A program made the position numbers and the translations under genes. Of a DNA stretch of 64,000 nt, positions 13,833 to 64,000 are shown piece after piece (position 1 is the stretch's first letter; each line of letters starts with the position of its first letter). The notes below the pieces were generated by a model, which was not told the origin of the DNA, ran no database searches, and worked only from the letters and a program-made list of their open reading frames with translations. This stretch comes from Cystobasidiomycetes sp. EMM_F5 (lineage: Eukaryota): positions 744,001-808,000 of the forward strand of contig JBPGPT010000001.1 of NCBI GenBank assembly GCA_051047955.1, given 5' to 3'.

Positions 13833-16649
13833 TCACCAGGCTCGAGCAACGGCTATTAAGGCCGCAATCGAGCAGAGCAGGCTGATAGTGCCGGTAACAA
13901 CGGCACCAATGCGATTCGCCCTAACGTACTTGTCGAGTTGTGGCACAAGGGCCTGTCCATTAATGGCGACATTCGATCGGCCTCCAGACAAGCGAATCTG
14001 ATGGTAGACGTTGGCTTGACAAGCGCAAGATGTCGAAGTGCTGGAGCAGCGACATCTGATGCCTTTTACAGACTTATACTCGCCATCAATAGCCCGAAGA
14101 CACCAGCCTCCTACGAAGAAGCACCATGGGCCGAGCACGAATGCAGCAAAGAATAGGAGACGAGCAGGTTGCACATGATCGACACGGTTTCTCAGCTCAA
14201 AACGTTGCGATATCTGAGTTGGTTGCAGTAGAGGGCGATGATTTGAGGCATCGATGACGATGTTGGCGGGTGCTGATAGCGGCATGATGGCGCTATGCTC
14301 ATTAGAACGACGCACTGAGAAACGCGTGATGGTGGGCGGTGCCGATCCAGCAGACACTCGACGGCTGTTTTGTGGCAGAGCGAGCTCTTGTATGACCTCG
14401 ATCGCAACGTCATCCTGAGCCTGAACTACTGCACTCTGTGCCGCGTGATGCTCGTGACCATGACCACTGCTACTTCCCGCATCTTCGGAAGGAGTGGAAA
14501 AAGATAAGACCGGAAGAGTGGATTGTCGCCTCCGCGCCAGCTCGCCGTCCATGACGCTAATACCCAATCCGGTGTTCGGGCCAGGGCGCAACATTGCGCC
14601 GGTGATGACAGTAGATGCGCGACTAGTCGCTCCGAGTCGCGGAGGAGTGGAGGTATTGGAAATTCCATTGGTCGAATGCGATCCATCTGAATGAGCTTCT
14701 GCTGACGAAGCAGGGGAAGCAGATCGACCTTGGATTTGGCCTTGCGCTACTGACGCTGAGGCGTCTGGTGACGATTTCTGACCGTATTCGCCGATCGCCT
14801 CGTTTACGACCGAGGATGGACGGAAAGCGTTTCGGATAGAAGCAAACGGGAAGCGGAAGATGGATGAAGACCTTCGTGAGTGTCCTTTACTTGGTGCCTG
14901 CGGCGTAGCTGCTACTACCGCAGCATCTTGGCTTTGCAGCTGTTGCGGCGTGACAAAGGTAGGCTGTTCTGTTTCACCGATCACTTCCAATTTACTGTGT
15001 TCCCCGTCCTTTGTGAGTACCTCTGCCATACCATGCATCGATGCGCGACTATGTCGTCTATCGAAGTCTGCAGTACGAGGTGTAGGTATCTCATCGTTTG
15101 TCCGTGGACTGTTATATCCGCTAAAGTCTGGACTCAACGTTGGAGGCGCAGCTGGACTTCCTCCTTCAAAACCTTGCGGAAGTTCAGTTTGAGCCGGAGA
15201 GGCATCCGTTGATGCAGGGTGTACAAACGGCGCAACAGGCTGCACAAAGTCATGCGGTAATTGTACCGAAGGTCTGGGCGTGTCGGAATCGCGACTGCTT
15301 GGTCCTGGAGAATGCTGACCAGCAATCCATGGATGATCGAGGAGTGACATCAGCGGGAAACTAGGTCTTCTCCGTCGCAACAGTCTTGAGATGGCACCCT
15401 CGGATCGTGCGCCAGACGAATGAGAATCTCGATTATGATTTCTTGGATTTTCGACAAACGTCGCTAATTCAGCTGGGGAGAGTGGAGGTGTAGCTGCAAA
15501 CGACCATCCTTGCCCAACATCCTTGTAATCAAATGCAGGGTGGACGGAGTACTGGTTGCCGAGAGGAGCTACAAAGTCATCGGCGTGCGAGTAACGACTG
15601 GCCCGGTGCATGCCGCTTTGGCGAGGTGGAGATTGACGAAGATCGACAGCAGAACGAGATTGTCTCTTCTTGCCTGCTAATCTGTATCGTCTCATTGCTT
15701 CTTGCGCATCGTCTATTCCGCCAGAAGGTCCGGGCGTAGCCGCAATGTCAATACCGACGTGCCTGGGCGGAGTGGTCGCTGTTGCGTGGCCTACTGCATG
15801 GTCATTTGCTCGTCCTACCGCTGCCGCTGCAAGTTGTGCGTGCTGTCGATTCTGGGCAACTTCCAGATCCCAAGAGAGGTCCAGGTCGACATCATCTGAA
15901 GAATTTGAGCCTCCAGAGCAGGAAGTGTTGAGATCCGACGCATCCGTCCCGCCACTGACCACGTCTGTTCTCCGCTTGCCATCCTTTCTCTCGTTTTCTG
16001 ACCCAATGGCAGAAAAACTTCTCGACCTATAGCTCCAGCTTTGAGAAGTCTGTGATCGCAATTCTTGCGAAGAAGGCGGTCGAATTTGGCCGTAGCTTGA
16101 TATGGGATGCAATGCAGGGGTTGAAATGGCTGCCGCTGCAGAATTTAGGTACGGGAAACCCGGCAGTTGGGTCCCAAACACGCTGTTTAGACGAATGCGG
16201 TTTTGTGTTTTAGCAATAGGTATCTTGCCATGATTGTGTATATTTGCAAGCAGAGCTCCACCACTCGAGGTGCTCCTCCAGCTATCGCCTTTACGCTTTT
16301 CAACATTATCGGGACTTGCTTGGATATGAATGGTGGCATGGCCGCTGCCTCGAGACGAGGTAGATCCATAATTGTAGGACGAAGGATGGAGTTCAGCGGG
16401 ATTATAAGCATGGCCGGTCGAAGAATGCAGATCCATCGACCCGCCATATAGGTGATTCGAAGTGGCCGACTCAAAGGTCAGATCTGGGGAGGTCAGATCG
16501 TGCTGCACGCTGAGATGACCACTGCTGCTTGCAAGCTCATCAGAGGCATTGGAACTTTTGGGAGTGCGCAGAGAGCCAGCAGAGCGTGTTGACCGGAGTA
16601 GAACGCCCGAAGGCTGGTGTGAAGTCGAGGGTATAGCGAGGGTGTCCAT
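13833..16649 (-). CDS. Hypothetical 938-aa protein, disordered N-terminus with C-terminal membrane segments
   Basis: Long uninterrupted ATG-initiated ORF. C-terminus has LLFFAAFVLGPWCFFVGGW, a Cys cluster (CRC...CAC) and a terminal hydrophobic helix. Confidence 0.75.
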   Translation of the reverse strand: MDTLAIPSTSHQPSGVLLRSTRSAGSLRTPKSSNASDELASSSGHLSVQHDLTSPDLTFESATSNHLYGGSMDLHSSTGHAYNPAELHPSSYNYGSTSSRGSGHATIHIQASPDNVEKRKGDSWRSTSSGGALLANIHNHGKIPIAKTQNRIRLNSVFGTQLPGFPYLNSAAAAISTPALHPISSYGQIRPPSSQELRSQTSQSWSYRSRSFSAIGSENERKDGKRRTDVVSGGTDASDLNTSCSGGSNSSDDVDLDLSWDLEVAQNRQHAQLAAAAVGRANDHAVGHATATTPPRHVGIDIAATPGPSGGIDDAQEAMRRYRLAGKKRQSRSAVDLRQSPPRQSGMHRASRYSHADDFVAPLGNQYSVHPAFDYKDVGQGWSFAATPPLSPAELATFVENPRNHNRDSHSSGARSEGAISRLLRRRRPSFPLMSLLDHPWIAGQHSPGPSSRDSDTPRPSVQLPHDFVQPVAPFVHPASTDASPAQTELPQGFEGGSPAAPPTLSPDFSGYNSPRTNDEIPTPRTADFDRRHSRASMHGMAEVLTKDGEHSKLEVIGETEQPTFVTPQQLQSQDAAVVAATPQAPSKGHSRRSSSIFRFPFASIRNAFRPSSVVNEAIGEYGQKSSPDASASVAQGQIQGRSASPASSAEAHSDGSHSTNGISNTSTPPRLGATSRASTVITGAMLRPGPNTGLGISVMDGELARRRQSTLPVLSFSTPSEDAGSSSGHGHEHHAAQSAVVQAQDDVAIEVIQELALPQNSRRVSAGSAPPTITRFSVRRSNEHSAIMPLSAPANIVIDASNHRPLLQPTQISQRFELRNRVDHVQPARLLFFAAFVLGPWCFFVGGWCLRAIDGEYKSVKGIRCRCSSTSTSCACQANVYHQIRLSGGRSNVAINGQALVPQLDKYVRANRIGAVVTGTISLLCSIAALIAVARAW

Positions 16650-17442
16650 GGCAGACAGGATGGTTCAGATGTGGAAGAGAGTGTGTATATGTATGTGTTT
16701 GTGTAGTGCTGCTCACTCAATCCAAGTCAGTCCTGCGTTATGTTTCGCACAAATAGACCCACCCAAGCGAGAGCGAGCGCGAAGACTAGATTAGGAGATA
16801 AAGAGCGTGGATTGTAGCGAGTGTGGGTATCGAGCCTCGAAGGCAGTCGCCGTCTATTTGACTCCAGCTTGAACAATGGCAGGTCTGTTTTATTTCCTGC
16901 CAGCCGCTCGAGGAAAGGCGGGTCGGCAGAGGCTGACCAGGTTATGCGGCAGTGGGAGTCGCAGCAGTCATGCCATGTCTTCAGACTGCACATCCATCCG
17001 AGAATGCAGCGCTCATGTTGGTATTTGCCAGCAAAGTCAAAATCATCGGTGCATAGTCCCGACGAAAACGGAGGGTCAGAGCTTGCAGTGCATCGACTGC
17101 GGGTGAACAGGCTACGGAGGGGAAGCCATTGGGCTTGGAGTACGAATAAAACTTTGTATATGCGTACGAAAGCTCGAGAGCTGTCTGCTTTCAATGCATA
17201 GCCTGCCCATGAATATTCAAGTCTAAACTTTCGCAACTACTGCAGGCGTTGCTTGAACGAAGTCCCACAGCCCAGTCCCCCAATCTTACTGATACACTCT
17301 ACAGCGCTTACCCTGTCTATGCTGCGACTGCACCTCGCACCTTCCCATCTCGCTGTGCCCACCCTCGCCTTCGCATAAAGTGGTTTGTTTGGACAACTGA
17401 AGCGAAGACGCGTCGACATCACGTGACGCGAGACGGGAGAAA

Positions 17443-20642: not shown

Positions 20643-21225
20643 ATGGCTCCTAAACCAGCATCCAAGGCTCCCGCTTCCACTGGAGGCAAGGCACCAGCCT
20701 CTACCGGCGGCAAAGCTGCCAGTCAGTCTGCTTACCCTACCCCGCTTGTGGATTTACCGCAGCTGACGGCCCGCACCAACGCGCTACCTTTGCAGAGTCT
20801 ACCGGCGGCAAGGCAGGCAAGAAGGCCACAAAGAAGACTTCTGCCTCGACTGGCGGTGACGCCGACAAGAAGAAGCGCAAGAAGAAGCGTACCGAGACTT
20901 ACTCTACCTACATTTACAAGGTCCTCAAGCAGGTCCACCCCGATACCGGTATCTCCAACAAGGCCATGTTGATCTTGAAGTGGGTGCTCATTTCTCATCA
21001 TGACTCTTTACATGCTGACACGACGTCTATCGCAGCTCCTTTGTCAACGACATTTTCGAGCGCATTGCGTCCGAGGCCTCCAAGCTCGCTTCGTACAACA
21101 AGAAGTCGACCATCTCATCCCGAGAGATTCAGACTGCCGTACGCCTCATCCTTCCAGGCGAACTTGCCAAGCACGCCATCTCTGAGGGCACCAAGGGTGT
21201 CACCAAGTACTCTTCTACCAAGTAA
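20643..21225 (+). CDS. HTB1: Histone H2B, divergent from H2A; probable 5' UTR intron near 20573-20628
   Basis: [62 protein letters not shown] at 21223-21225. Confidence 0.97.
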
Positions 21226-21689
21226 TTGGGTACTCTGACTAGACACCCCCGCAAGCCTTTACACGCTGCAAACCATGACTTGGTCGTCGTGCGATATGAC
21301 GTCAAGCTATCTTCGCCTTTCTCTCACTTCGGCAGTGGTGTAGCTGTCCTTACCAGCGTATTCAGGTCTCTCGCTTTCCTGTACTGCGTAGAGGAGCGCC
21401 TCCACTGTTGTCCATTTACTGCCCAAACACTTTACTGGATGATTGAACTGGCTTTGAGTTTGATGGTGCTTGTCTCGCGCTCTGCTCGCACAGAGAGTGT
21501 GCTCTTTTGACTCTTTTAGCGTTTGCAAGACTAGCTTGCCGTTCCAAACACCACTTTACGCGGTTGCGCCTCCCATGTTTATTTTGCTTTGACCAGCTCC
21601 CGCTCTCGTTGGCGCCCCACTGACTATCACGACTACCGCTGATAGTGCTGCTCTTGACCGACGCCAGAGTATACGCCTCCCATGCCATA

Positions 21690-24600: not shown

Positions 24601-25739
24601 AGCTCGGGCCAAAAACCGCCTGCTCAGAACCCAGGCAAAATTCGAAACTCGCACAGCGCATCCACCGAAGAGAGCGACGACAGCGATGTCGAAGCGTCCA
24701 AGGCGAATACTAGCTATTCTGCTTTGCCAAAACCCACCCAGAGTATTCGGTTCGCTGAAACTTCGACAAGCTCTGCTGCAATCGCTCCTACTCAAAAATC
24801 AGCAAAGGGACGTGCTCAGCAATTGAAGCGCGACAGTATCCCGGAGGCTTCGAAATCCTCGCAGCCAGCGAATAAGTGAGTGATGATCTGTCCTTGACTA
24901 TCGTAAGCTTAACCTCTTCCGGCGAAGAACAAAATCCAGCCTTCCTCCGTCGAAATCGAAAGTGATGCTAACCGGTCAGACAGTCAAGATTGCGACGACC
25001 GGTGTGGCTCTCGAGGATGACATCCGCCGCGTATGTCAACGAAGTTGCTTGTGCACGTGGATACGTCAGCTGAATGGTCAACAGGCACTGACGAACAAGC
25101 TTGGAGCAAGGCTCCTTGACGAGAAGCTTGACGGCGTCACTCATATTATCGTCAAGAACATCTCGAGGACCGTCAAGTTCCTCGCTGCTATTTCATATGG
25201 TGCATACTTTGTGACCGAGCAATGGGCTATCGATTCCATTAGGTACAACCAATTCTTGGGTGCGCATTTCTATTCATGTTTGCCTGAGATACTCGACTAA
25301 CGCAAAAGAACGCAGACGAAGACAAGTATATGCTCCGCGACAGAGAGGGCGAGGAAAAACACTCTATGGATCTCGCACGGTCCCTGGTCAGAGCCCGCCG
25401 TAGCAAGATTTTCGATGACCATACCTTCTACATCACCGCAGGCGTACAACCGCCATTCGAATCGCTCAAAACTATCGCGGAAGCTGGAGGAGCTAAGGTG
25501 GGTCGCTTCGAGCGAAACCTTAGCTTGCGTCGCTTATTTCAACCATCACACAGGTTCTCCGAAAGCTGCCATCGGCAAAGCACATGCAAGATCGAGCGGA
25601 CGCGCATGTTATTTCGTCGCTAGACGAACGTAGTCTATGGGAGAGTCTATCAAGCCACCACGTCCCGATCTACAGCGGAGAGGCAATAATCCGTGCAGTC
25701 CTGCGTCAAGAAATGGACTTCGAGAAGTACACCTTGTAA
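21690..25739 (+). CDS. Multi-BRCT DNA-damage scaffold (Brc1/Rtt107/PTIP-like)
   Basis: N-terminal BRCT repeats (YSPEPGMIFSGVVAC...FGGQW...VTHL; ITVSGYAG...IEMLGG...VVNHTWVEDCF), a disordered linker, then a C-terminal tandem BRCT pair (VTHIIV..ISRTVKFL..FVTEQW; FYIT..V.P..LK.IAEAGGA). Confidence 0.85.
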
Positions 25740-29730: not shown

Positions 29731-30248
29731 GGTGAGGATATTGTGGTGTTGTAGCGAGTGTGGGCTATTCTCAAGAGCAGGGAAGGTTACGAGTATCGTT
29801 TCTTACGCTGACGGGAGTTGGTAAACCGCCTGGAACCGGTCACATCTTAAGGATTCGTTGACGCTCAGGATCTGTTGGCATATCCACCGGCTCAGAGGTT
29901 TCCGGGAAACGCCCGTACTTCTTCGACCAAATTCTGCCAGTGAGGATGACAGTCGCTGACTGTGACGGAAGGACTACCGGCGCGGCGTTAGTGGAAGTGG
30001 AAGTATCGGGTAAGCACGCGAAGCATAGGTGCGGAAATCGTCAGCGTATAATTTCTCCACACCGCAACATTAGATGAGCGACTGTGTGAGCAAACAAGGT
30101 GGAGCATTTATTCGGACCTGGTGAGTGTGAAGGATTGTAATTGTGCATCTGTGCTGTGGGCTGCTAGGTAACCACAAGCCCTAGCTGCATGCGTGGGGAA
30201 CCGGGCATATATTCCCCGGAAGCAAATTTGCCGTACCTTCACTCTGCA

Positions 30249-30254
30249 TATATA
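30249..30254 (+). promoter_or_regulatory. TATA-like element about 30 nt upstream of the tRNA
   Basis: TATATA at the position typical of fungal Pol III upstream TATA elements. Confidence 0.5.
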
Positions 30255-30282
30255 CGTTACAGATGCCAAACTTAAAGAAAAC

Positions 30283-30410
30283 GACCGCTTGGCCCAATGG
30301 TGAGAAATCTTCAACCAAAATCTAGCGGCCTGTTTCTCATTCCCAGTTCCTTAGGTTAAGGCATCCGACTACGAATCGGAAGATTGTGGGTTCGAATCCC
30401 GTGGTGGTCT
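30283..30410 (+). tRNA. tRNA-Arg (anticodon ACG) split by a 55-nt D-loop insert at 30300-30354
   Basis: Joined sequence GACCGCTTGGCCCAATG|GTTAAGGCATCCGACTACGAATCGGAAGATTGTGGGTTCGAATCCCGTGGTGGTCT folds into a cloverleaf: acceptor GACCGCT/GGTGGTC, D stem GCC/GGC, anticodon stem TCCGA/TCGGA with ACG at 30371-30373, T arm GTGGG-TTCGAAT-CCCGT. A box TGGCCCAATGG and B box GGTTCGAATCC are intact. Confidence 0.93.
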
Positions 30411-30430
30411 ATTGGTGACTAGAAAGTCTC

Positions 30431-30435
30431 TTTTT
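30431..30435 (+). terminator. Pol III oligo-dT terminator
   Basis: TTTTT about 20 nt downstream of the tRNA 3' end. Confidence 0.7.
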
Positions 30436-31063
30436 CTTGTGAGAAAGGCTTCGTTTCTTTTGCTTGGAATGAGTAGATTTGATCTTTTGTAGATTGAGTA
30501 CTTCTATCGCATAAGAAGACGTGCACTCCTGCCGGTCAGCTTCCCAGGCTCCGCCGACAGACGGAGGGCATGCGAATGAATCTGCGGGCAGCTCCGAATC
30601 TCGCGATCCTTTTCATTTCTTCATCATCATACTGAAGACTTCGAGCGATCTGGCAGATTAGCACCTCGAAGAAGATATACTGTATGCCCAGCTCAGATTG
30701 CGCTTGTTAGTCCCGGCAAAAATCTTCTTCAATGTCGCATTCAATGACGTCGACCGAATAGCCCTCGAACGCGTCAATATTCCCAATAACAAGTCAGCAG
30801 TCAGTAACAAGAAGAAAACGAATCTTGCTGGATCCCATTAATATCATCAGCGCTGAGTGCATACGTCACTGTCTGACTGAGCGCCGCGCATTCCAGCGTA
30901 CTTTGCATAGCCCGGGTGTGGCCAAACCGGGCGACTGGTTTTGAAGTGATCAAAAAGCTGCGCGCAGCCGTGGCTGGCTCTCGCAAAGTCACTCAACCAG
31001 CAGTTCTCTCTTCCGCCTACACCAAGACGGCACCAGGTCTGGTCGCTATACAGCACATCCATC

Positions 31064-46151: not shown

Positions 46152-46894
46152 AATTGGAAGTATAGTGAGTGGAGCTTTGTCGCGTCTAGCGAACCTGTGA
46201 GCCAAGCTTGTCAAATTAACGAGAGAACGAAAGGCAAGCAGCTGAACGAGGCCCGTAGAGCTGGACATCAGCACAGCGCACAGCTCAGATGCTACAGAGG
46301 AGCATGGGGTGCAGCGTGGCTATGTTGAGGATCAAAGGACGGTTCTGCGCGGATGACCGTCAAAGTGCAACAAAGGGGTGCCTTACAAAGATTGTGTGGA
46401 AGCTGTGTTAAAGCTGTCATCGCCCACGGAAAAACAATGCCGGGTAGTGTTGCATTGGGGATCACGTTCAGCAACGTCAGGTTGAACCGCCAGCTGCGCG
46501 GCTGTCAAGAGCAACGCGTTTATTGCTGGCAGTGGGTGGGTCACAGATTAGCACAAACAGAAGGTCAACATCCTCCTGGAATATAGCGATAGACAGAATT
46601 CTTCGGCAGCTTTCGTATGCCAGCTAAACTGTATTCGTTACAGATATGCTTCAACGCGAAAAGTCGAGGTCATTACGCGTGTTGCACATACACGCCGACA
46701 CGATTGTCGGTGCAGTCATGAGTGTCTCCATCTACAAACCCGGCCAGTCTTGATCCGTCTGAATGACGGACAATGTTGTATTAATATGGTATAAATCTTG
46801 GTCGAAGAGCGCTGAGATCCACTTGAGCGGAGCCAGTCGATGACTGAGAAGCGATACCGCTGGGTTTAGGGCGAAAAGCACGGCTTGACACCGA

Positions 46895-57291: not shown

Positions 57292-59731
57292 TCAGTCCAC
57301 TTGGGTTGAGTGCAGGAGACTGCTTTGAGAAGATTTCAGATCATCCTGCGACTTTACTCGGTTCTTGTTCTTCTTGTTGACCTCTTTGCGCTCTTTGCGG
57401 ACAGCCTTCGCGTCAACAGGGACTGTGGTTTGAAAATGCTTAATATGCGTTGTGATGTATGGCTGCATTGGTACGGGCGGCGATCTTGTTGGTGTTTGCG
57501 CAGACTTGGCCAAAATATTAGTGGCCGGACGCAGCCAGTCTGCAGAAATGGGATTGACACGCGCTTTGACCAGCTTGAGCAGAGTGGCAAAGTGAGACGC
57601 ATCTGTGTCCTGTGGGCGATTGCATGTCTGAGCCGACAAGTTTGCATAGAGAAATAATGAACCTACTGTGATAGCCAAGACTGCAGCTCTGCGTAGGCCC
57701 AGAAGATCTGCTAACCGCTTTTCGGCACCTTTGCCAAGCGGGACCAGATACACGTCCTCAAGCGCAGAGGCACCGGGAGGCACCTCACATTGTGCGCCAG
57801 ATGACTCTGCTGGAGCATTGGCACTGCTGTGAGATGCTGTGGTAGCTAATTGTCGCAAAGTCGCGTTTGTAGCATTTCTCGCTGCCACTGCTGTCAAGAT
57901 GTGCTCCACAATCGCAAGAGGGTTTATGTCGCCTGTGCAGACAAACACGAGCCGGGCGCACGAAGGACGTAATGGTGGTATCATACCTCCGTCTGACGAT
58001 ACCGCCCCTTTCGCTGCGGCTGTTTCCACCTCCTTACGATTCACTCTGTCCTGATTTCGCTGCCATTCAAGCGATTCCGCTCGATTGAATTTTGCTGAAC
58101 TTGTGGCATACATTTCGCGCCACTTTCTGTTGGCTGTGTTGGCAATATCTACAGCCTCTGCCGCTGAAACCGCAGCGATCCATTCTCTGTCAAATTGAGC
58201 CAGGAGGAACATTAGGGTCGACCGAATAGGGCTTATGTAATTCGCTGTATAGTCCTCGGAGCGAGGGCTGAACGGCGAGTACATTGATAGAATGAGCTTG
58301 AGCTCTTGGGTAGGTAGAGACACGAAGCCAGTCTTCTCCGTTGGTAAACTTGGTGGCTCTGTACACGGAAGCCCGCGCTCGCTGACATGACCTGCCTGAA
58401 ACCCGGTTGGCATCGAGGGAGAAGCAGCATCCTGTGCGATACCACCGTTCGATGTGGATATTGGCTCAGCCGCCTCGTGCTCGTCCGCCAAAGATCCATC
58501 GACAATGCTTATCAGTTTGCGTGCTGCCGCTTCCAGGACAGCTATGCCGTTCTTAGAGAGTCTGCTAGACTTTATAGCTGGTGTTGCCGGAAATACTTCT
58601 GCTGCATGTTCTGCCAACTCTGCAGTGTAATCATTCAGGGTATGTAGGAGTACAGCGTCATGCAGGGGAACATTCCGGAGTGGTGGCACTGGGCCTTTAG
58701 AAGAGTCATATTTGTAAGTAATCTCGTCCCCCGACTCCTCGTCTCGTCGTGGACGTTTGCGGGATGCTGCATCTCGTGCTTGTGCGCGCTTCCGCTTGAG
58801 CTGTCGTTCGGCAGGGTGTAACTTCATTCTCAGCTCAGCCCTCTGTTTTCGCGTCGACTTATTCGGTGCAGGTACGAATATGCGGAGATCCGATTTGTCC
58901 TTCTTTACAGATTCCCTAGCTGGTAGCCCGAGTAGCTGTCTTCTGCCATCTTCCACATCATCTTGTATCAGAGAAGTAACCGCATTGATTCCTACAACTA
59001 GTGCCTGACAAATAGCCGGCCTGTTGTCAATCGCTGCCCGCTTATCGAGAAGCAGTGAAGGTTGAAAGCGTTCAGGTGATTCATTATCAGGTATCGCTAC
59101 CTTACGGCCACTGCGTAATGACAGCTCGTGCGATCCGCAAGGAATGCCTCGCGCGCGGAGAGCTGCAGTCGCTCTTTCGGCTCGTGCAAAGTTGACTGCC
59201 TTCTGACGAGCGCGCTTGGATGGATAGGTTTTCTCCTCAGTAAGGGTCGTAAGAGAAGCGGGCGAAGCTTGGGGATCGCTTGAAGGTGTAAGATCTCCCT
59301 CTTGTGTTGGTCTCGGGAGTAACGAGGGTACTGCTTCAGTTGTTACTGTGTTAGAAGCGGCCGAAGCGTCATTTCCGTCGACGGCCATGCCCGGAAACTG
59401 CACGGCGGTGTCGATAACTCCAGCGGACGTTGCTCGTTCCACAATCGTAGCACTGTCTGCAGCATCATTCGCATCACGGCGTCGTAGTTGTGATTCTCGG
59501 GCAATGACGAGCGGCTGCAGGACCTGAGCAAGAGCTGCCTGTATCTGCGCTTCTGCCGCAGGAGCGATACTTGGCCTGGCGTCAATACAACACATTAGCG
59601 CGTTCATTATAACTCTTTTCAGCCATTTCGCACCATTTCAAACTAAATGGATCCGTCAGAACTGGTTTGACTGCAGGTTTCCGTTTACTCTGCGCAGACT
59701 GCTGCTGCGCCTGCTGTCTGAGGGATGTCAT
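57292..59731 (-). CDS. RNase P/MRP subunit Pop3-like protein (L7Ae-type fold) with large insertions
   Basis: Exon 1 MTSLRQ...KPVLTDPFSLKW|PSI, then LVVGINAVT, LVFVCTGDINPLAIVEHI and LVPLGKGAEKRLADLLGLRRAAVLAI. Confidence 0.65.
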
Positions 59732-62335: not shown

Positions 62336-64000
62336 TCAGATGAACTGCAGGAATAGGCCGAATCAGCACAGACATGGTGCCGAATTTAGCGGGCTGCTCA
62401 CCATATACAGAGCATCGCGCTGGTACTGATTCTTGTCGTCGGATAAGTCGATCCAGTTTGGATAGTACGGCACCATAGCATCCTGTGCACCAAGGTAGCA
62501 CGAGTTGTAGATTCGCCAGTATACCTCTCGGACCTTGCGCGCTGGGTGAGCTAGACCTTGTAGAATGTAGCTCATTAAAACACCGGGACCCAGCCCTACA
62601 CGCATCGCTTCGATGGCGTCCATGACTTGTCCAATGACGTGTGGACTGGTTTCGAAGCAATTTGGCCAGACGAGGTTCATCAAATGCAGCAGTGCATCTT
62701 CGTTGCCAAGACCTGCTGTGCCCAGAGCGAGATGCTTGACGATACCAGCAGAAGTTTGCCGGTGTACGGCATCTCGATCAGTTAACGCATCCTCGAGGCA
62801 GGTCACCACGCTGTGTATGTAGTCTTTGCCCATTTCGCCAATGTACTCAAACAAGAAGGAAAGGGCTTTGAGACATCCATTTCGAACGTTGAGATCTGGC
62901 GTTCGGTATTCATTGAGTATGGCCGGAATGCATGTGAATGGCCCGCAGGTCTCCGCAACGATAGCGATCGCCACTGTCGAGCACACACGGGACTGACGAT
63001 CTTGTACGCGAAGATTGGTAAGTAGAACGCTGAGTACATCCTGAGGACCGATGGCCTTGGCGATGTAACCAAATGAATTCACTGCCGCTCTCCGAATTGC
63101 TTTCTTGTGGGCCTTGAGTAGATCCAGCAGCTCGAAACAGATACGCATCCACTCTCGAGCGGACACGTACTCCGCACCACGATCTGCGATACGGCCAATC
63201 AAGTTGATACAGGCTTCTTGTACCTTTTCATGGCGATTCCGTAAGATCGGCGTTAGGCGAGGTACTATGATAGAGAAGGTTGATAAGCATGACGGTTCCA
63301 GCCAGACGATACTATTATGCACTCACAGAGGTCCTTGACAGGTGGGCTCATCTGAGTCATTCCGACCACGTTCGCGATTGCACCTTCTGCAGCAATAATG
63401 CTACCAAGAGTGTCAGGATATTCTTCACCGAATTGCTCGAATAGAATGACTCCTAGTGTGCCAAGTAAACGGTCTTCTCCACATTCCTTGATAACGACAG
63501 CCAATTTGCTGACTAAGTCCGCTGCCTGTTGACGGACCGCTGCACTCTTGTTTTGCAAGCGATACAAGACACAAGAGACAACTTCTTGCAAATCTTCCTT
63601 CACTCGAATACCTGTTCTATCGCGTCAGCGACCTTTCGTCCGACCAGTCAATGCTTTGCTCACCTAGTGCATTTACTACCGTGCCAAAGCCGTTGAGGAT
63701 AATGTCGTCTTCAGAAACTTGTGACTGGAAAGCGTGTATAACGCCGTCGAGTAGCTGCTTCATCAATCGCTCATCGATGTCGGCAGCACCCAGACTTGAT
63801 ATGACTTGCTGTATGGTCTCCATGACCATTTTGCGATACAGCTCGTTCTCGTCTTTCAGATCATTCACGATACGACCCACAATCTCAGACACGCCAGCCT
63901 TCTGCGCCAGCTCGACTGTCGTTTCCACGACCTGTTTGTAATTCCGTCTGTCTGCAGCCATACGCCTCACCCAGAAGTTTCTGAAAAAGTCGGGCAATAT
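62336..64000 (-). CDS. SF3B1: U2 snRNP splicing factor SF3B1/Hsh155, C-terminal part; 5' end lies outside the window
   Basis: HEAT repeats [36 protein letters not shown] and [11 protein letters not shown]; final exon FI-TGA ends at 62336. Confidence 0.98.

Follow-up and report, generated by a model that had tools for sequence, protein, structure and literature searches.

In the 64-kb stretch of DNA analyzed here (the window), a tRNA-Arg(ACG) gene is split within its D-loop by a 55-nt insert with GT-AG ends. Our best explanation, held tentatively, is that this Pol III tRNA gene, intact in other respects, carries a spliceosomal-type intron, probably acquired via reverse splicing, and that its RNA would need the spliceosome for maturation. 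The parts of this explanation differ in strength. Judged by its sequence, the insert is likely of intron origin; splicing itself we infer, and productive splicing of this particular gene appears somewhat doubtful.

The interrupted tRNA gene and its genomic setting

Joining nucleotides 30283-30299 to 30355-30410 (window coordinates) gives a normal 73-nt tRNA-Arg(ACG). The 5' exon (17 nt, 30283..30299, plus strand) contributes the 5' strand of the acceptor stem, positions 8-9, the 5' strand of the D-stem and the start of the D-loop, as assigned on the ARAGORN cloverleaf after removal of the insert. The insert itself occupies 30300..30354 on the plus strand (55 nt, GTGAGA...TTAG, 44% G+C, longest T run 3 or shorter), as delimited by reading of the sequence, by ARAGORN and by the comparison with introns. 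The 3' exon (30355..30410, plus strand), placed by ARAGORN, Rfam and the alignment, carries the remaining D-loop, the 3' strand of the D-stem, the anticodon arm with ACG, the variable loop, the T arm and the 3' strand of the acceptor stem, and it ends with the discriminator T at 30410 (plus strand). The anticodon loop is uninterrupted; the insert does not sit at position 37/38 but in the D-loop, where in the GT-AG register it falls between G18 and G19 (our numbering of the ARAGORN cloverleaf), in agreement with the original prediction. A GGT repeat at both junctions, which had been pointed out as a source of ambiguity, allows four cut registers with an identical product, and only one of them has GT-AG ends.

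The interrupted gene escaped tRNA detection, as had been anticipated. No tRNA was called by ARAGORN in the whole 64-kb window, nor in the region 30000-30700 with anticodon-loop introns either allowed or disallowed, and Rfam gave no match at the gathering score. A sub-threshold Rfam tRNA match (27.6 bits, cut-off 29) was obtained at 30348-30402, covering model positions 10-63. Between 30000 and 30700 Rfam found no other RNA families, and when the whole window was searched with E up to 1, only one unrelated weak match appeared besides the tRNA match; neither ARAGORN nor Rfam detected any other tRNA in the window. The original prediction had claimed that removal of 30300-30354 restores the tRNA, and had proposed a tRNA finder run on the spliced sequence as a check. 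When these nucleotides were removed in a script, ARAGORN called tRNA-Arg(acg), 73 bases long and folded as a normal cloverleaf, and the claim was thereby borne out.

The condition of the tRNA body was judged against an alignment of 52 distinct intact tRNA-Arg(ACG) sequences, taken from 149 ARAGORN calls among the metagenome loci listed (see below). The exons matched the reference sequences in 41 of the 45 columns with at least 95% conservation. All four deviating columns belonged to base pairs 7-66 and 29-41, and pairing was kept in both; unpaired conserved positions showed no deviation from the 52 sequences, and the promoter boxes were intact. As the deviations are confined to two base pairs that still pair, the tRNA body shows no decay. 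In this respect a recent insertion would look identical.

The upstream TATA element, the A box, the B box and the T5 terminator that the original prediction had listed as intact were all found. The sequence TGGCCCAATGG (30290..30300, plus strand), which we take to be A-box-like in comparison with the consensus, ends with a G that already belongs to the insert, as its first base. This initial G of the insert keeps the A box complete, and therefore a precursor could still arise from the internal promoter. The B box GGTTCGAATCC (30389..30399, plus strand) was the single B-box match in the window when both strands were scanned. The insert widens the gap between A box and B box from 33 to 88 nt; widened spacing of this kind is regarded as tolerated in tRNA genes. 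A run of five T residues (30431..30435, plus strand) that starts 21 nt past the discriminator, leaving a trailer of 20 nt in between, is the likely Pol III terminator. The TATA-like run TATATA (30249..30254, plus strand) was located 29-34 nt upstream of tRNA position 1, and upstream TATA boxes are described as important in certain plants and fungi for the transcription of tRNA genes (PMC3978253).

The palindrome GGCC is present twice at the locus, in the 5' strand of the D-stem (30291-30294) and inside the insert (30327-30330). These two copies are paired with each other in the minimum-energy fold of the precursor, and as long as the insert is present, this pairing would be in competition with the D stem.

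The interrupted gene was also searched for elsewhere. A pattern requiring both halves and a gap of 35-65 nt, but not GT-AG ends, gave 0 matches in metagenome contigs and 0 matches in prokaryote genome contigs, and 26 consecutive bases of the anticodon arm, searched for as an exact match, likewise gave 0 matches in the prokaryote genome contigs. The 3' half alone was found in metagenome contigs at no fewer than 150 loci (at least 152 matches). Among the 152 matches listed, 149 were inside intact ARAGORN tRNAs, one was cut by the end of its contig (L126) and two were degenerate (L033, L135); a D-loop insert was present in none of these 152. For L033 and L135, the upstream sequence gives no normal 5' half and there is no ARAGORN call, and the two look like degenerate tRNA-Arg(ACG)-like copies in unrelated organisms. 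By their sequences the metagenome matches look like tRNAs of other eukaryotes that are not close relatives, and so they say little about the lineage studied here.

The tRNA gene is the sole gene of a 1.3-kb intergenic region flanked by divergent genes for a DUF6533 protein (minus strand) and an aspartic protease (plus strand), with gene starts as read from the open reading frames (ORFs). The aspartic protease ORF showed 65% identity to a Cyphobasidiales protein and 52% to Sporobolomyces johnsonii, and the best relatives of a KRI1 ORF were from Mixia osmundae (43%) and rust fungi (37-40%). With protein relatives in Cyphobasidiales, Sporobolomyces, Mixia and the rusts, it is well supported that the host is a basidiomycete of the Pucciniomycotina without close sequenced relatives. 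Its class is possibly Cystobasidiomycetes, as suggested by one protein at 65% identity. According to a taxonomy lookup, both Cyphobasidiales and Rhodotorula hasegawae (now Erythrobasidium hasegawianum) belong to Cystobasidiomycetes. Elsewhere in the window, two minus-strand ORFs without a Pfam family, of 943 aa (13836-16664) and 781 aa (57295-59637), appear to encode lineage-restricted proteins; when 5.8 billion proteins were searched with the 781-aa ORF, a single relative (35% identity) was obtained.

Comparison of the insert with candidate introns of the same genome

The insert was compared with 30 candidate mRNA introns from the window, a noisy set that is unchecked by RNA or homology. The candidates were collected between paired dominant ORFs with a minimum length of 60 aa using a donor pattern, a YAG end and frame compatibility, with branch motifs left unused; six of the 30 come from two stricter sets (12 and 8 introns). 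One ORF pair in the candidate-intron output, at 21139-21343 (plus strand), gave a histone H2B-like C-terminal translation.

The original prediction had described a GTGAGA start, a TAG end and a length like that of local introns, and all three features were matched among the candidates. The 55 nt of the insert compare with 47-97 nt in the candidates (median 60.5, n = 30). The commonest candidate start was GTGAG (8 of 30), and the 3' ends of the candidates were CAG in 20 and TAG in 10 of the 30 cases. The G+C content of the insert (44%) was close to the mean of the candidates, which was 49%, and a T4 run, seen in 4 of 30 candidates, is missing from the insert. The predicted pyrimidine-rich stretch was found as well: pyrimidines make up 85% of the 20 nt that precede the AG of the insert and on average 56% in the candidates, a feature noticed post hoc. 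Introns identified by eye at ORF junctions also resemble the insert; they are 50-75 nt long, start with GTRAGN or GTATGT, end with YAG and have CTRAY-like motifs 10-25 nt before their end.

The branch site is a weak point of the insert. The branch-like sequence TTCTCAT named in the original prediction is indeed present (30334..30340, plus strand), and the motif scan assigned its core CTCAT (30336-30340) to the YTNAY class, with A30339 at a distance of 15 nt from the insert's last base; a branch motif of the YTRAY or YTRA type, on the other hand, is absent from the insert. Among the candidates, YTRAY occurred in 13 of 30 (24% of random segments) and YTRA in 20 of 30 (42% of random segments). 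CTCAT is the single branch-like match of the insert within range, and its class is found in 40% of random segments. Distances from the branch motif to the intron end were 7-33 nt in the candidates, the shortest of these being uncertain given alternative acceptors.

A CAG nearer to the branch-like motif than the TAG at 30352-30354, which is the 3' end required for a normal tRNA, had been listed among the caveats and was found at 30344..30346 (plus strand). It lies 7 nt past A30339 and 8 nt upstream of the needed TAG, it comes after a strong pyrimidine run and has the sequence that prevails at the 3' ends of the candidates, and its use would enlarge the D-loop by 8 bases. This CAG might be too near A30339 for use. 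In 7 of 20 candidates, AG dinucleotides occurred between the branch motif and the 3' end; since such internal AGs are no rarity, the competing CAG is a difficulty for the spliceosomal reading and not an exclusion of it.

In three candidates that have no YTRA motif, at 25498-25553 (plus strand), 46532-46586 (plus strand) and 63265-63326 (minus strand), the sequence TCAAC was observed 10-20 nt before the 3' end. Judged from these sequences, TCAAC might serve this genome as a secondary branch motif. The tRNA insert contains TTCAAC at 30310-30315, but there the distance to the end of the insert is 40 nt, and an AG comes next at 30324-30325.

No second copy of the insert was found in the window, where the best other match was 11 nt long. 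A repeat or mobile-element origin of the insert was rejected, given that the window holds no second copy.

Competing explanations for the insert

According to the explanation we favor, a free-standing Pol III-type tRNA-Arg(ACG) gene would have had its D-loop interrupted by a U2-type GT-AG intron, probably gained by reverse splicing. Pol III would transcribe the precursor from the internal promoter, the A box being intact. The spliceosome would then use GTGAGA, the weak branch site A30339 and the TAG at 30352-30354, with one cut falling at G30299|G30300 and the other at G30354|G30355, and joining of the two exons would restore a working D-loop. The spliceosomal interpretation given in the original prediction stood in part: splice signals, length, host lineage and the lack of a bulge-helix-bulge motif agree with it, whereas the branch motif is weak and the CAG competes with the needed TAG.

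Removal of the insert might instead follow the path of non-canonical tRNA introns cut by the tRNA splicing endonuclease and sealed by a ligase, as in Cyanidioschyzon merolae and nucleomorphs, eukaryotes in which excised D-loop or D-arm introns of the endonuclease type are known (PMC3978253, PMC4090602). As described in these two papers, the known cases depend on a bulge-helix-bulge at the junction, but here none could be drawn even under relaxed rules. The original prediction had reported no clean motif by eye, and a systematic enumeration, in which central helices 3-5 bp long were tried together with bulges of 2-5 nt in each of the four registers, found none either; a 4-bp helix did not occur, and every hit was a 3-bp helix flanked by helices 0-1 bp long. 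Nor does the precursor have an unusually stable fold, as its -31 kcal/mol (z = 0.60) is no better than that of shuffled sequences. Furthermore, the fungal tRNA splicing endonuclease measures from the mature domain to the anticodon loop. A contact of Sen54 with the D arm is mentioned in PMC4090602. As the known eukaryotic non-canonical introns rely on a bulge-helix-bulge or are very short, the endonuclease route is very improbable for this insert. The main rival is a gene copy disabled by the insertion, and it comes in two forms. If an intron was retro-inserted into one of several gene copies, the locus would be a young, undecayed pseudogene, and its short uncapped Pol III precursor would remain unspliced or be spliced to the wrong AG. 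The intron-like signals expected of such a dead gene are identical to those expected of a functional one, and the weak branch motif together with the well-placed competing CAG speaks for it. tRNA-Arg(ACG) is normally a multi-copy gene, so the loss of one copy would be tolerated; in addition, insertions in the D arm of eukaryotic tRNA genes are usually taken as pseudogenes (PMC4090602). The lack of decay in the tRNA body, the promoter elements and the splice-like ends, however, fits a dead gene only if the event was recent, and the insert contains no T4 run to stop Pol III. We regard this form of a disabled gene as rather unlikely.

The second form of a disabled gene requires no intron at all: an unrelated 55-nt insertion, e.g. 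filler from break repair with a GGT duplication, would resemble an intron by chance. GTRAG...YAG ends were found in 11 of 127,890 55-mers of the window (0.009%), the insert itself counted. However, GGT at both junctions is the expected trace of a 3-nt target duplication, and as this duplication would supply the GT and the final G, a filler needs only an RAG start and a YA end, which is the case for 526 of 127,890 (0.41% of random 52-mers). That frequency is still small; it drops to 166 of 127,890 (0.13%) if a YTNAY motif 8-40 nt from the end is demanded as well, and to 3 of 127,890 with a pyrimidine tail of at least 80%, a criterion added post hoc. Junction repeats of at least 3 nt were also seen in 3 of 30 candidate mRNA introns, compared with 5.5% of random 55-nt blocks, and the repeat is therefore no argument for a duplication. 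Frequencies of 0.009-0.41% put the resemblance above chance at this one locus, but the force of this calculation is reduced because the locus was picked for its GT-AG look among very many windows. The missing consensus branch motif also favors a chance resemblance; against it, 55 nt falls in the middle of the local range of intron lengths, and the coincidence with the introns in snRNA genes of this lineage would be left unexplained. Taken by its sequence features, the intron look of this locus is unlikely to come from chance, and an unrelated insertion that disabled the gene is placed by us among the unlikely explanations. Altogether, the locus represents a credible, although unproven and possible rather than probable, case of a spliceosomal-type intron in a tRNA gene.

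Relation to known spliced RNAs and significance

Spliceosomal introns in small non-coding RNAs are an established phenomenon. The U6 intron, which resides in a Pol III transcript, is spliced in Schizosaccharomyces pombe, U6 introns occur in many fungi (Canzler et al. 2016, cited in PMC5855946), and spliceosomal introns are described also in U1, U2 and U5 snRNA genes and in rRNA genes (PMC5855946). The same paper presents reverse splicing as the proposed origin of introns in non-coding RNAs, with RNA abundance as a possible determinant of which of them gain introns. The U6 genes of S. pombe and other fungi resemble the present locus in that a small structured Pol III RNA with internal promoter elements holds a short intron with a canonical 5' splice site and AG, and reverse splicing has been proposed as the origin of these introns, as here (PMC5855946). 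U6 introns are nevertheless described as having canonical branch sites, which the tRNA insert lacks, and splicing of U6 has been experimentally shown in S. pombe (PMC5855946), while splicing of the tRNA insert is a proposal. A further difference is that U6, unlike a tRNA, sits in the catalytic centre of the spliceosome, and this position accounts for U6 as a target of intron insertion.

Two other systems in fungi bear on the locus. The U1, U2 and U5 snRNA genes are transcribed by Pol II and their products are parts of the spliceosome, which distinguishes them from a tRNA. In Rhodotorula hasegawae, these three genes contain spliceosomal introns (Takahashi et al. 1993, 1996, cited in PMC5855946). 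This yeast shares its class with the nearest named relative of the host, a Cyphobasidiales genome, and its introns, too, interrupt conserved parts of small non-coding RNA genes. The U3 snoRNA of fungi provides another small structured RNA with a spliceosomal-looking intron; U3 introns are described as normal-looking spliceosomal introns that are broadly present in Basidiomycota (PMC5832005). In the account given by PMC5832005, U3 and U6 are so far the sole small structured RNAs for which frequent interruption by an intron is known, and tRNA is absent from that pair.

The closest counterparts by position are tRNA introns of other eukaryotes. C. merolae and the nucleomorphs of cryptophytes and chlorarachniophytes have tRNA introns in the D-loop or D-arm that, as here, are missed by standard finders (PMC3978253, PMC4090602, PMC3728597). 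Those introns are described as having bulge-helix-bulge junctions or as being very short (3-24 nt in Guillardia; PMC3978253, PMC4090602), whereas the insert studied here has no such motif, is 55 nt long and carries GT-AG ends. PMC4090602 also treats eukaryotic tRNA genes with insertions in the D or T arm, which are presumed to be pseudogenes; the trait shared with them is a D-arm insertion in what is possibly one of several synonymous genes. In contrast to such presumed pseudogenes, the present insert has splice-like ends and a pyrimidine tail beyond chance, in an undecayed tRNA body.

A full-text search, with most subscription journals outside its scope, found no publication that describes a tRNA gene with a spliceosomal intron. 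A paper from 2025 treats spliceosomal, tRNA and XBP1/HAC1 introns as completely unrelated types, the spliceosomal ones being assigned to Pol II transcripts, mRNAs among them (PMC12530127). If the favored explanation is true, a tRNA that needs the spliceosome would cross the line between spliceosomal and tRNA introns. It would also extend the short list of spliced Pol III transcripts, which so far holds U6, add a new host class to a known phenomenon, and provide a natural test of reverse splicing as a source of new introns in an abundant RNA from outside the spliceosome. Even if the gene is a dead copy, the locus still records the landing of an intron-like sequence in a tRNA gene.

In its strongest form, which we consider fairly doubtful, the explanation describes a working tRNA gene whose Pol III transcript passes obligatorily through the spliceosome; it would be the first tRNA to mature by mRNA-type splicing and the first known to need the spliceosome, and it would come from a fungal class whose snRNA genes likewise acquired spliceosomal introns. 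Further tRNA genes of this type may form a hidden set with this locus, skipped by finders or called pseudogenes. As genes of this kind are invisible to standard tRNA finders, the tRNA sets of these fungi could be under-counted.
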